Shown here: positions 41,138 to 44,388 of the stretch, one piece after another
Layout: the number at the start of each line of letters is the position of its first letter
Position numbering within the stretch: the first letter of the stretch is position 1
Source of the DNA: Bacteroidota bacterium
GTDB lineage: Bacteria > Bacteroidota > Bacteroidia > Flavobacteriales_F > PHOS-HE28
NCBI GenBank assembly: GCA_014584605.1
Contig: JACTMO010000027.1
Span: 11,690 to 75,689 of the forward strand
DNA: 64,000 bases
Reading direction: 5' to 3'
Position numbers and translations under genes: made by a program
Notes under the pieces: generated by a model
Told to the model about the DNA's origin: nothing
Database searches by the model: none
Seen by the model: only the letters and a program-made list of their open reading frames with translations

Positions 41138-42523
41138 CTATGCGCCCAGCGGCTCGAACCGCGCCTGGAAGAAGCGCAGGTACTTGGGTTCGTAGGTCAT
41201 CTTCAGGCCGGTGATGCGGTCGCGACGCTCGAAGACGCGCTCCACGCTCTCGGCCACCACGTCCATGTGGGCCTGGGTGTACACCCTCCGGGGAATGGTG
41301 AGGCGTACCAGCTCCAGTTCGGGGTAGTAGTGATCGCCGGTCTCCTTGTTCCGGCCGGCGCTCACGATACCGCGTTCCATGGCACGCACGCCGCTGTCGA
41401 TGTACACCTCGGAGGCCAGGGCCTGCGCCGGGAAGGCGGTCTGTGGCACGTGCGGCAGGAAGGCCTTGGCGTCCAGGAACACGCCGTGGGACCCGATGGG
41501 CAGCACGATGGGGATGCCCATGTCGACGAGCTTCTTCCCGAGGTATTCCACCTGCCCCACCCGGGCACGGATGTGGTCGTCGTCCACGCTTTCGGTGATG
41601 CCGATGGCCATGGCCTCCATGTCGCGCCCGGCAAGGCCGCCGTACGTGTGCAGACCCTCGTACACCACCACCATGTTGCGGGCCTCCTCGAAGACGTCCC
41701 ACTCGTTGGTGGCCATGAAGCCACCGATGTTCACCAGCGCGTCCTTCTTGGCGCTCATCGTAGCCCCGTCGGTGAGTGAACAGATCTCCTTCACGATGTC
41801 GGCGGCCGAACGGTGCCCCTGACCCTCCTCGAGCATCTTGATCATGTAGGCGTTCTCGGCCACGCGCGTCATGTCGTGGATGATGCGGATGCCGTGCCGG
41901 GTGCACAGCTTGCGCAGGGCCTTCAGGTTGGCCAGCGAGAGAGGCTGGCCGCCGGCCATGTTCACCGTGGTGGCGATGGAGACATAGGCGATGCGGTCCG
42001 CGCCATGGGCGTCGATGAGCCGTTGCAGCTTCTCGAGGTCCACATTGCCCTTGAAGGGAAAGGTGCTCCGGGGGTCGTGCGCCTCGTCCACGATGATGTC
42101 GGCAAAGGTGCCGCCGGCGAGCTCCTGGTGCAGCCGCGTGGTGGTGAAGTACATGTTGCCCGGCACGAACTGCCCCTTCTTGATCAGGATCTGCGAAAGG
42201 ATGTTCTCCGCGCCCCGACCCTGGTGGGTGGGCACGATGTACTTGTAGCCGTAATATTTCCGGATGGCCTCCTCCAGGTGGTAGTAGTTACGGCTTCCCG
42301 CGTAAGCCTCATCGCCCAGCATGAGACCGGCCCACTGCCGGTCGCTCATGGCACTGGTGCCGCTGTCGGTGAGCAGGTCGATGTACACCAGCTCGGAGGG
42401 CAGCAGAAAGGTGTTGTACCCCGCCTCCTCGATGGCCTTCACGCGCTGCTCGTGCGTGGACATGAAGAGGGGTTCCACCATCTTGATCTTGAAGGGCTCG
42501 GCCCAGCTGGCTTTCTTGGTCAT
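41138..42523 (-). CDS. tpl: Tyrosine phenol-lyase (beta-tyrosinase)
   Basis: 461 aa, closely matching my recollection of Citrobacter TPL along its whole length. Matching segments are [22 protein letters not shown]-lysine [50 protein letters not shown] and [11 protein letters not shown]. Confidence 0.85.
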
Positions 42524-42552
42524 CGTGGTTCGCGGATGTTCGGTCGATCGGT

Positions 42553-44388
42553 TCAGATCACGGTCCGTGCGTCGGGAAGGAGCATCGCACGGAGCTCCTC
42601 GGCGTGCTGCTCGAGCTCCCTGCGAAAGCGCTCGGCATCCACGGCCGCGTCGGCGAGCGCGTCCTGGAGCAGCACCCGGTAGTGCCGGATGCCCTCCAGC
42701 AGGTTCTCGCGGAAGGTGTTGAGCCGACGGAGCTGCTTGGCGCTCAGATCGGTGGCACTGCGTTCCACCTCGCGCTTGAAGTGGTCCACGTACAGCCCCA
42801 GTTCCTTGATGAACATGTGGGGCCTGGACACGCCGACAAGAAGGTCGGTGCGGCCGTAGATATGGTCCACCATGGTGCGCAGGGAGACCACCTTGTTGAA
42901 GTAGGCCGTGTTGGGCCCGGGGCAGATGGCCACGGCCTGCAGCTTGTGGGCGGGCGACATGCCGGCCTTGAGCAGGGCGGCGGCGCCCAAGCCCTCGCAG
43001 AGGCAGTCCTTGTCCATCACCGCGGCCTCCTCACGGGCCAGCACGGCAGGGTCGGTGATGGTGGCGCGCAGTTGCGCGAGCTTCAGGTTCTGATACTGCC
43101 GCGAGGCGGTACAGATGGGGCGCTCGGTGAACTCGGTGTTGCTGCTGAGGAATTCCTTGTAGCAGGGGCTTCCCGGCCGCCCTTTGGCGATGCGCACCTG
43201 GCGCTGCTGCTCGGAGCTGCTCCGCCGGAAGTTGTGGAAGGGCACCCCCAACGGCGAGGCGTTGCTCAGGAAGAAGTCCTCGGGCCTCGCCTGAACGAGC
43301 TGTTCCAAGGTGGCTTCATCCACGTTGGTGACCTCCGGCACCAGCAGGAAGGGACTGCCCCATCCCGTGCCGTCCACACCGTAATGATGCAGCAGGAAAC
43401 GGTCCTCGGCCGCCGTGCCGATGCCGCCCTGTGCGGTGATGCGTTGCGGGGGCCTTTCGCCGAACCGGGCCAGGCCGGCGGCCTCCAGCGCCTTGTTGCA
43501 GGTGCTCCAAAGCTCATCGGCCAGGGCCGCCCGGTGTTGCGCGAACTCGTGCAGGATCGGCCCCATCAGCAGGCCATCCGTGGCGAAGGCATGGCCGCCA
43601 CAGTTGAGGCCCGACTCAATGCGGAACTCGGACACCCATACGCCCTTCTTGGCCAGCAACCGCCCCTGCACCTGCGCCGAGCGCAGGTCGCTCACCTTCA
43701 GGATGACCCGCTTGCGCAGGCCCCCCGCGGCATCGGGCAGGAAGTCGGCGAACCGGGCGATGTAGTTGTACAGCCTGGGGTTGTAACCCGCGCTGAGCAC
43801 CAACCCCGAGCCCAAGGTGCTGCTGGCAAAGCCCCGGAACACCGCCATGGCATCGCAGTATTCCTCGGGCAGTGGCGAGCCGTCCGGTGCGTAGTTCACC
43901 GGGTCGATCTTGGCCATGATGTTCACATCGATCGCCCCCGGCGTGATGCAGGCGCGCAACTGCGCCTCTTCAGCCGTGCGCTCAGAACCCGGGGCCATGG
44001 CCAGCATGCGGCGGTAGCGTTCGCCCACGTCCGAGCCCGTGGGCAGCAGCTCGAAATACAGGGCGCTTTCGGAGCCCGGACCGATGGGGGTGCTCCGCAC
44101 CCGTGCGACGTTCCGGTCCACCAGCCGCTGCAGCAGGTCCAGATAAGCCGTGACACGCCGTGCCCGATGGTCGTGCGAAGGCTTTGGAATGGGCTCGTAC
44201 CGCTCACCGGCGAGCTTCGCATGGTGCTCGCGCATCCGCTCCACCAGCTCGTCCTCGATGATGGACACCACCGAGGAAATGCCCAGGTGCGCCACCTTGA
44301 GGGGGGTGTCGATGGTGTACCCCAGCCCCATGACGGGGATGTGGAAGGTGTGGGGGCCTTGCAACACCCCGGCATCCGGACCGGACAT
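42553..44388 (-). CDS. Uncharacterised 611-aa protein; N-terminal two-thirds resembles a distant FMN-dependent NMO/FabK-type TIM barrel, with a C-terminal Cys-containing helical extension
   Basis: [15 protein letters not shown] (compare NMO PIIQAPMAGVSTP), [13 protein letters not shown], and [34 protein letters not shown] (compare the phosphate-binding GGI...GADGVQMGTRFL). It ends 29 nt upstream of tpl on the same strand. Confidence 0.45.

Follow-up and report, generated by a model that had tools for sequence, protein, structure and literature searches.

We analysed a 64,000-nt stretch of a Bacteroidota genome assembly (contig JACTMO010000027.1, positions 11,690 to 75,689, referred to here as the window), with the emphasis on one gene, here called X, which encodes an orphan protein of 611 aa. 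X lies between a gene for tyrosine phenol-lyase (tpl) and a gene for a qNOR-type nitric-oxide reductase. The features of the locus are as follows.

42553..44388, minus strand: gene X, 611 aa, ATG start, orphan FabX/PfaD-like TIM-barrel protein (open reading frame (ORF) list, AlphaFold2 (AF2) model and Foldseek)
41138..42523, minus strand: tpl, tyrosine phenol-lyase, 461 aa, ATG start (TIGR02618 equivalog; Pfam Beta_elim_lyase, 1.2e-79)
42524..42552, minus strand: X-tpl intergenic spacer, 29 nt (ORF list; free of minus-strand terminators; tiled by metatranscriptome contigs)
44769..47084, plus strand: qNOR-type nitric-oxide reductase, divergent from X (COX1 and NorB_cytochrome_c-like domains)

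These coordinates bear out what a sequence-only reading of the stretch had described, namely a 611-aa ORF that ends 29 nt upstream of tpl on the same strand and is divergent from qNOR, and all the motifs that it had quoted from X are present in the translation. The 461-aa neighbour is a true tyrosine phenol-lyase, as had been proposed: it scores 756.3 bits with the TIGR02618 equivalog model against a cutoff of 720.7 bits, and the TnaA models give it 510-555 bits, under their own cutoffs of 750-826. The qNOR reading frame is open over 44430..47084 on the plus strand, with the in-frame ATG at 44769 as its probable true start; if this start is used, the divergent intergenic region between the start codons of X and qNOR is about 380 nt long. 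Neither a Crp/FNR-type box nor any inverted repeat was found in this region, and a promoter scan with the sigma-70 model, which is unsuited to Bacteroidota, returned no promoter.

X and tpl are both covered by contigs in two wastewater metatranscriptomes, and in one of these, run X11, the 29-nt spacer is bridged by two overlapping contigs, 42371-42549 and 42531-42801. A terminator scan of the window found no minus-strand terminator-like site between the two genes. They therefore share a strand, a short gap, the lack of a terminator and junction-spanning transcript contigs, the features by which we recognise an operon. It is likely that X and tpl are carried on one transcript, as the sequence-only reading had supposed, and the contigs, which are assembled, shallow and unstranded, count as support for this and not as proof. 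Neither of the two metatranscriptomes has any depth over the 2.6 kb of qNOR, which argues that the X/tpl signal is RNA and not DNA carry-over; it also argues that qNOR is not co-expressed with X and tpl in those two samples. Two further runs, X7 and X8, which are labelled METAGENOMIC miRNA-Seq, were excluded as expression evidence because their coverage behaves like that of DNA, with contigs of up to 5.4 kb and even depth over all genes including qNOR.

X is a real, conserved gene, since a word-indexed search found at least 8000 homologue clusters (90% identity) and 991 representatives, taken at 50% identity, came out of an exhaustive HMMER scan and form one cohesive family of about 600 aa. 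At least 600 species carry X in a species-level genome scan. The carriers are mostly Bacteroidota (Flavobacteriales, Cytophagales, Sphingobacteriales and Chitinophagales) and include the genera Pedobacter, Mucilaginibacter, Chitinophaga, Dyadobacter, Algoriphagus and Pontibacter from soil, freshwater and wastewater; copies at about 50% identity are also found in Ignavibacteria, Omnitrophota, Planctomycetota and Acidobacteriota. None of the best 120 relatives has a precomputed Pfam domain, and any name given to them is 'hypothetical protein'. X has no match in Pfam at E<=0.01 nor at E<=10, and none in NCBIfam. Searches of the PDB sequences using phmmer and a full-alignment profile gave nothing or spurious apolipoprotein-like helices, and a profile restricted to the barrel, with the helical insertion removed, gave no true match. 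A literature search for a characterised member of the family, or for a Bacteroidota hypoxia regulon that names X, found nothing. The family is thus very large, annotated as hypothetical everywhere and without a match here in Pfam, NCBIfam or PDB sequences, which is one reason why it matters.

The AF2 model of X, made with 37 homologues, shows a confident eight-stranded beta/alpha barrel (predicted template-modelling score, pTM, 0.81; mean predicted local distance difference test, pLDDT, 77) with strands at residues 15-17, 38-43, 153-157, 195-198, 227-232, 252-258, 316-320 and 340-342. The parts of the protein that are referred to below are the following.

43264..44361, minus strand: predicted (beta/alpha)8 barrel, residues 10-375, with a helical insertion of about 100 aa (residues ~46-148) (AF2 secondary structure and pLDDT)
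43591..43605, minus strand: NCGGH motif (N262-C263-G-G-H266), candidate active-site Cys/His (C263 and H266 98% conserved; resembles EAGGH of FabK and nitronate monooxygenase (NMO))
43348..43431, minus strand: residues 320-347, QGGIGT..., candidate phosphate-binding strands beta7 and beta8 for flavin mononucleotide (FMN) (Q320, G321, G322 and G342 at least 95% conserved)
42910..43173, minus strand: Cys-rich segment, residues 406-493 (C409, C426, C462, C464 and C489), candidate iron-sulphur (Fe-S) or other metal site (conservation)
42586..42816, minus strand: long C-terminal helical hairpin, residues 525-601 (AF2 helices 525-543, 550-576 and 582-601)

Foldseek comparison of the model to the PDB gave five matches at E<=0.001, which are three entries of Helicobacter pylori FabX, PfaD and the enoyl reductase (ER) of the DfnA trans-acyltransferase (trans-AT) polyketide synthase (PKS). 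The FabX entry 7e1q and PfaD 4z9r both have an E-value of 3.5e-7 and DfnA-ER 4cw5 has 5e-6, each with a probability of 1.0, and the TM-score on the length of FabX is 0.61. All other folds, including DAHP synthase and the Old Yellow Enzymes (OYE), have E-values of at least 1.9e-3. As judged from the predicted model, X superposes better on the FabK/FabX/PfaD structural superfamily than on other barrels. Solved structures of NMO and FabK are not among the 50 Foldseek matches listed, although the PDB sequence set contains them. At the level of sequence the relationship was not detected. Alignment of the X barrel to FabK with hhalign, using either the single sequence or a 15-sequence profile, had a non-significant probability of 5-7%, obtained with a shallow FabK profile for which the homologue search had given only close relatives (at least 80% identity). 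Only the beta7/beta8 phosphate-binding segment was aligned sensibly (QGGIGT...GWGSPF on AAGGIATG...VQIGSRF), and NCGGH and EAGGH were left unaligned with each other.

The suggestion that X has an NMO/FabK-like barrel thus stands for the structure, where FabX, PfaD and DfnA-ER are the best matches, and does not stand for the sequence. We rejected X as a housekeeping FabK, since two genomes (L017 and L025) carry both X and a canonical FabK; the latter matches PDB 4iql at 9e-120, and in L017 it matches PF03060-annotated proteins and carries an EAGGH motif. Membership of X in the Pfam NMO family (PF03060) was likewise rejected in view of the missing hidden Markov model match and the low hhalign probability. 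X is a separate family that lies inside the FabK/NMO structural superfamily and outside Pfam NMO, and the best explanation of the predicted fold is that it represents a previously undescribed family of the FabK/FabX/PfaD (NMO-fold) TIM-barrel flavoenzymes.

We assessed conservation on 48 full-length representatives, each at no more than 50% identity to X. The five cysteines C409, C426, C462, C464 and C489 are conserved in 96-100% of these divergent sequences, as are the glycine-rich loops that are candidates for holding a flavin. The earlier observation that X has about double the usual length and a C-terminal extension was correct, and it is this C-terminal part that is rich in cysteine and conserved. 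The lowest AF2 confidence is found at residues 389-435 and 459-487, which are the only long poorly predicted regions and which both bear cysteines; such poor modelling would be expected where folding depends on a cofactor. The hairpin that follows has only spurious apolipoprotein-like sequence matches. On the strength of the fold and of short motifs, among them the local alignment of the phosphate-binding segment to FabK, we infer that X binds FMN. The cysteines suggest an Fe-S cluster, and a Zn site or a dithiol site is possible.

Comparison to characterised enzymes helps to place these features. According to PMC8626469, FabX of H. pylori belongs to the NMO family of flavoproteins: it binds FMN, uses His182 in catalysis and has C300, C304, C308 and C320 as the ligands of a [4Fe-4S] cluster, in a small subdomain that follows the barrel. 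Like FabX (HP0773, 7e1q), X has a predicted TIM barrel followed by a subdomain that contains cysteines, and in both proteins a GGH motif includes a conserved His. It differs from FabX in its length (611 against about 360 aa), in a sequence identity of about 15% with no detectable sequence homology, in the helical insertion of about 100 aa, in the long C-terminal hairpin and in the extra Cys beside the His (NCGGH). The five cysteines are spaced C-x16-C-x35-C-x-C-x24-C in X, whereas the FabX ligands follow C-x3-C-x3-C-x11-C, so that X does not share the [4Fe-4S] ligation pattern of FabX; a cluster ligated in another way is possible. PfaD and DfnA-ER fit X no less well than FabX. They are larger proteins of about 440-540 aa, with the NMO fold and several subdomains, whose substrates are enoyl thioesters tethered to acyl carrier protein (ACP). 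PfaD and the trans-AT PKS ER bind NAD(P)H directly; unlike X, they lack a conserved Cys cluster, lie in polyunsaturated fatty acid or PKS clusters and are recognised by Pfam NMO. The likeness to FabK and NMO is that of a shared superfamily fold and of motifs, in which PVMG... of X resembles PIIQAGM, VNIM resembles VNVP, NCGGH resembles EAGGH, and the beta7/beta8 segment resembles AAGGIAT..VQIGSRF. The FMN and [4Fe-4S] reductases of the OYE family (2,4-dienoyl-CoA reductase, trimethylamine dehydrogenase and clostridial enoate reductases) have the same logic of flavin barrel, Fe-S cluster and external electrons as is proposed here for X, although they belong to another barrel family and match X only weakly in structure (E-values of 1e-2 to 6e-2).

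Two natural fusions of X add to this picture, and the Cys/His signature is intact in both. The first, P0122 (1167 aa), consists of X followed by a complete flavodoxin-FAD-NAD(P)H module that scores 548 bits with the CysJ model TIGR01931; it was found in three assemblies of a single lineage. In an operon-like row, its gene comes immediately after those for a molybdopterin oxidoreductase, a 4Fe-4S subunit and a NarJ/TorD-type chaperone. The organisation of P0122, an N-terminal catalytic domain and a C-terminal CysJ-like flavodoxin-FAD-NADPH module, resembles that of P450 BM3, nitric-oxide synthase and the CysJ-CysI system, in which the catalytic partner is a haem or sirohaem protein and not an NMO-fold barrel, and the fusion of X is confined to one lineage (3 contigs). 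It says that X takes electrons from a one-electron carrier, it argues for the need of an external reductase, and it suggests electron input where FabX hands its electrons to O2. The second fusion, P0141 (981 aa), joins X to a PlsB/PlsC-type glycerolipid acyltransferase and is identical in two independent samples. It ties X to acyl chains on their way into glycerolipids.

The P0122 fusion also bears on whether the cysteines hold a cluster at all. They could form a structural Zn site or a redox dithiol instead, with the flavin taking electrons directly from NAD(P)H as in FabK and PfaD; the Cys spacing, which fits neither the FabX motif nor other known [4Fe-4S] motifs, and the equally good structural match of PfaD and DfnA-ER, which have no Fe-S cluster, are in keeping with this. 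We nevertheless consider it rather unlikely, as a complete diflavin reductase would be redundant in the fusion if X bound NADPH itself, genes for the ferredoxin-generating 2-oxoacid:ferredoxin oxidoreductase (OFOR) adjoin X, and the neighbourhood is oxygen-sensitive. As side observations, at the P0122 locus (L081, 3042-6545) a 4Fe-4S dicluster subunit is nearby and no membrane-anchor subunit is visible among the neighbours, and P0122 might be the electron-input module of the adjacent molybdoenzyme. At the P0141 loci (L086, 7107-10052, and L087, 4198-7143) a GH43 glycosidase gene and several ORFs without a Pfam match lie nearby. A further apparent fusion, of a TetR domain to X (P0131), may be a gene-calling merge.

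We then consider the gene context, for which ORFs were called and clustered within 6 kb on each side of X at 80 species-level loci (79 for the neighbour counts). At least one gene of a low-oxygen or nitric oxide (NO) island is present within this distance in 44 of 79 loci. A FixL-like PAS-HisKA histidine kinase occurs in 19 loci and a response regulator with receiver, cyclic-nucleotide-binding (cNMP-binding) and HTH_Crp domains in 16, and this kinase-regulator pair is either divergent from X or directly downstream of it. Near X we also found hemN (10 loci), the alpha and beta subunits of OFOR (6-7), nadA and nadB (6 each), a pair of cytochrome c and a COX1-family nitric-oxide-reductase-like (NOR-like) subunit (5-6), RIC/ScdA, Usp, ccoI and ccoNO (5 each), and FixH, DsbD_2 and an Rrf2-type regulator (4 each); nosF-like and nosY-like genes recur as well. 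A 4HBT thioesterase is a neighbour of X in five loci. In Omnitrophota and Planctomycetota the neighbours include OFOR and thioredoxin-reductase genes. No universal operon partner was found among the 25 tight same-strand neighbours that were inspected, of which only QueD/PTPS-like genes (3 loci, gap of at most 13 nt), nadA (5 loci) and the PAS kinase (5 loci) recur.

In 15 of 77 loci the 250 nt upstream of X contain an exact palindrome TGAT-N4-ATCA, the core of Crp/FNR-type boxes; shuffled sequences gave 0.55 and a maximum of 5 in 1000 shuffles, and other genes of the same loci gave 35 of 633 (Fisher p=9e-5). The loci with the box are mostly those where X stands alone, so that this evidence is independent of the neighbourhood evidence. 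Since X is consistently placed in microaerobic and denitrification islands, our results suggest that it is an unrecognised part of the response of aerobic Bacteroidota to the loss of oxygen. This role would be relevant to the N2O-reducing communities of wastewater.

The same context has to be weighed for two other functions. X could be a soluble ferredoxin- or flavodoxin-dependent reductase of a small non-lipid metabolite (an enoate, an activated C=C bond, an N- or S-oxide) that serves as an electron sink or detoxifier in anoxic denitrifying growth. The CysJ-type fusion implies net electron input, P0122 stands in a row with the molybdopterin oxidoreductase, the 4Fe-4S subunit and the NarJ-like chaperone, OFOR and thioredoxin-reductase genes are neighbours in Omnitrophota and Planctomycetota, the islands are of the low-oxygen and NO type, and FMN and Fe-S TIM-barrel reductases do exist, 2,4-dienoyl-CoA reductase with its weak Foldseek match being an example. 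We regard this function as rather unlikely all the same, because in structure X matches the ACP-dependent FabX, PfaD and DfnA-ER best while OYE and enoate reductases have E>7e-3, the acyltransferase fusion points to acyl chains, and no transporter or pathway gene for a specific small substrate recurs near X. The other function would be that of an NMO-like oxidiser of nitronates or nitroalkanes, detoxifying the nitro compounds of nitrosative stress. X does belong by structure to the NMO superfamily and does have NO-related neighbours (qNOR, the NOR-like pair, RIC/ScdA and the Rrf2-type regulator). However, it has no NMO match in Pfam, structures of NMO and FabK are missing from the Foldseek matches listed, and NMO chemistry uses O2 with neither an Fe-S cluster nor an outside reductase, in contrast to the invariant cysteines, the reductase fusion and the low-oxygen setting of X; we hold this function to be very improbable. 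The setting near NO metabolism that the sequence-only reading had pointed to stands in part, in that X usually lies among low-oxygen, NO and denitrification genes, while qNOR itself is not linked to it.

The evidence on qNOR is consistent in this respect. Of the 80 loci only L030 has a true qNOR within 6 kb of X, at a distance of about 5.5 kb, and at the position between nadB and X it is absent in the close relatives L001, L002, L064, L082, L083 and L084. Because it is missing there in every close relative, qNOR is a lineage-specific insertion between nadB and X in the window. Together with the zero depth in the two metatranscriptomes this led us to reject a linkage of X to qNOR.

The partnership with tpl requires more discussion, since X is adjacent to tpl in all seven members of the window's own clade (X identity of at least 64%). 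These are the window, the three closest genome loci (L001, L002 and L064) and three long contigs with X at 70-77% identity (L082, L083 and L084). The conserved order of the block is ribonucleotide reductase (RNR), cytochrome c, COX1-like, nadA, nadB, X, tpl and tnaA-like, flanked by Crp/FNR regulators, norCBQD-like genes or a cbb3 oxidase cluster. In L083 the order is nadA, nadB, tpl, X, tnaA-like and PTPS, with X between the two lyases. NadA and NadB provide an O2-independent route to quinolinate, tyrosine phenol-lyase and tryptophanase break down aromatic amino acids with no need for oxygenases, RNRs of the B12 type and HemN are O2-independent isoenzymes, and respiration under micro-oxic or denitrifying conditions relies on cbb3 oxidase, NOR and Nos. 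The theme of the block is oxygen-independent or low-oxygen metabolism.

It could be argued from this that X works with tpl, and with the tnaA-like lyase, on shared metabolites such as 2-aminoacrylate or iminopyruvate, phenol, indole or nitrotyrosine. The 29-nt gap with no terminator, the RNA contigs that tile the junction, the adjacency in all seven clade members, the position of X between both lyases in L083, and the persistence of tpl near X in loci that are rearranged (L010, L014, L020 and L042) are all compatible with such a pathway. Against it, 73 of 80 X genomes have neither tpl nor tnaA within 6 kb, and a tpl or tnaA-like gene is present in 7 of 80; synteny is already lost at 65% identity in L085, where X is alone among unrelated genes; and the active-site and Cys residues are invariant with or without tpl, so that the chemistry of X is not specific to tpl. 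Aromatic or nitro-compound genes do not recur near X in the surveyed loci. A shared pathway is therefore quite unlikely, although a metabolic link of X to the lyases that is specific to the clade is possible. We read the arrangement of X and tpl as co-regulation within the island and not as substrate channelling, because the catalytic signature of X is invariant in about 90% of carriers, which have no tpl. Thus X and tpl as a functional pair, as first proposed, did not hold beyond the window's Flavobacteriales clade, to which their adjacency is restricted, and nothing points to the suggested pathway for aromatic or nitro compounds or to the handling of nitrated tyrosine or phenols. The striking neighbours tpl and qNOR are specific to the clade and do not explain the function of X.

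With these results, our favoured explanation, which we put forward tentatively and with a little less than even confidence, is that X is a cytoplasmic oxidoreductase with FMN and a probable Fe-S cluster, acting on an acyl or enoyl thioester within a low-oxygen and denitrification programme. In this explanation the N-terminal barrel would bind FMN, with His266 and Cys263 of NCGGH as the acid/base residues, and four of the five invariant cysteines of the C-terminal part would hold the Fe-S cluster. The cluster would link the flavin to a one-electron partner, which would be ferredoxin or flavodoxin in most carriers and the fused CysJ-type NADPH reductase in one lineage. The substrate would be an acyl or enoyl thioester of lipid metabolism that is reduced, dehydrogenated or isomerised at the alpha,beta position, and X would work in the low-oxygen and denitrification programme and not in a tyrosine pathway. 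Our data show the structure of the gene, the likeness of fold, the conserved residues, the fusions, the gene context and transcription in situ; FMN binding, the Fe-S cluster, the direction of electron flow, the substrate and regulation by oxygen or NO are deduced from them. Thioesters of this kind are the most probable substrate class in our analysis because the structural relatives act at the alpha,beta position of ACP-bound chains, one fusion partner is an acyltransferase, thioesterases are found as neighbours, and there is an anaerobic precedent in NGO1024. The latter, which is the gonococcal homologue of FabX (UfaA), is induced 8-10 fold anaerobically (PMC3032703), in parallel to the low-oxygen context of X; as cited in PMC11300592, it is reported to be necessary for anaerobic unsaturated fatty acid synthesis with an acceptor described there as unknown.

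Several observations weigh against this explanation. The recurrent neighbours of X in the 79 loci include no fab, ACP or lipid gene. There is no Crp/FNR-type box directly upstream of X in the window or in its close relatives, and Bacteroidota homologues of Crp/FNR may sense carbon and not oxygen (PMC8510549). Beta-eliminating lyase genes lie close beside X in the window's clade, and in one member X stands between the two. As no significant link by sequence connects X to any flavoenzyme family, FMN binding rests on the fold and on short motifs, and the Cys spacing that differs from FabX leaves room for a Zn or thiol redox site. Each of the two fusions comes from one lineage only. Moreover, a fused NADPH reductase implies electron input, which suits a reductase and would also suit an isomerase that needs reduced flavin, but not a dehydrogenase of the FabX type. 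The invariant Cys/His signature, the fold and the two fusion partners make X a tractable target for enzymology.

A more specific form of the favoured explanation is that X provides an O2-independent route to unsaturated fatty acids in aerobic Bacteroidota and some Ignavibacteria, Omnitrophota and Planctomycetota, as an FMN/Fe-S enzyme switched on by the FixL-like kinase and Crp-type regulator under hypoxia or denitrification. We consider this form unlikely as it stands. X would introduce or isomerise a double bond on a medium-chain acyl- or enoyl-ACP when the O2-dependent desaturases fail, and the Fe-S cluster and the external ferredoxin, flavodoxin or CysJ-like reductase would only keep the flavin reduced, as in type-2 isopentenyl diphosphate isomerase. 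A role in priming the flavin would make the fused reductase compatible with a redox-neutral or FabX-like reaction. If the lipid hypothesis is true, it answers how these organisms make unsaturated fatty acids when oxygen is lacking.

Further genes of the window that were annotated in this analysis lie on the side of X away from tpl, upstream of X in its own direction of transcription, and are given below.

47150..48697, minus strand: nadB, L-aspartate oxidase, syntenic upstream of X in the clade (FAD_binding_2 and Succ_DH_flav_C)
48694..49662, minus strand: nadA, quinolinate synthase, start approximate (homologous to a neighbour cluster with Pfam NadA in L082-L084)
49653 to ~51011, minus strand: COX1-family NOR-like subunit (COX1 match; likely start overlaps the cytochrome c stop codon)
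51008-51400, minus strand: cytochrome c, 130 aa, CVACH motif (ORF; matches a recurrent neighbour cluster)
51436..51449, no strand assigned: FNR/Crp-type box TTGACGAGCATCAA, one mismatch to TTGAT-N4-ATCAA (36 nt upstream of the cytochrome c start)
51565..54345, minus strand: RNR large-subunit-type gene, 926 aa (Ribonuc_red_lgC 2.9e-88; same position in L082 and L084)
55108-55881, minus strand: nosY-like (ABC2_membrane_2 domain)
55878-56594, minus strand: nosF-like (ABC_tran domain)
56587-57843, minus strand: nosD (NosD domain)
59100-61094, minus strand: nosZ (nos_propeller domain)

The box TTGACGAGCATCAA precedes the cytochrome c gene that heads the row of cytochrome c, COX1-like, nadA and nadB. 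The cytochrome c and COX1 pair may represent a haem-copper enzyme of the NOR type that is uncharacterised and separate from the qNOR, which lies 5 kb away, and the RNR may be of the B12-dependent class II. The genes nosZ, nosD, nosF and nosY lie 11-17 kb from X, and two ORFs of this region (58277-58999 and 61097-63025) have no Pfam match. The right half of the window is a denitrification island, with the nos cluster and two NO-reductase-type genes, in a Flavobacteriales-like genome of 66% G+C.

A few minor observations were made on the neighbouring genes. Two beta-eliminating lyase paralogues stand side by side in L002, L014, L064, L082, L083 and L084, one 74-88% identical to the TPL of the window and the other, tryptophanase-like, 45-47% identical to it; the window holds only the TPL copy of this pair, with a convergently oriented gene beyond tpl. 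A QueD/PTPS-type gene of the 6-carboxy-/6-pyruvoyl-tetrahydropterin synthase family (CxxxHGH motif) is directly downstream of X in L026, L030 and L049, with a gap of 0-13 nt, and is also within the X island in L064, L080 and L083. A four-gene unit of PAS-HisKA kinase, receiver-cNMP-HTH_Crp regulator, small protein and hemN recurs in L043, L051, L057, L063, L066, L070, L074, L079 and others; its regulator looks like a FixJ/FixK hybrid in one polypeptide, and its small protein of 150 aa is a truncated 2-hydroxyacid-dehydrogenase-like sequence with a Cys-rich tail. A conserved protein of about 160 aa that has no Pfam match (cluster 14) and appears truncated-globin-like by eye is encoded at 10929-11411 of L001 and at four other loci, near RIC/ScdA and nos-like genes. 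On the left flank of the locus (36164-40527) the window encodes a Glu/Leu/Phe/Val-type dehydrogenase and a three-part proton-translocating transhydrogenase (pntAA, pntAB and pntB); these genes are not syntenic with X elsewhere, apart from L004 and L008, whose edges match pntB in part.

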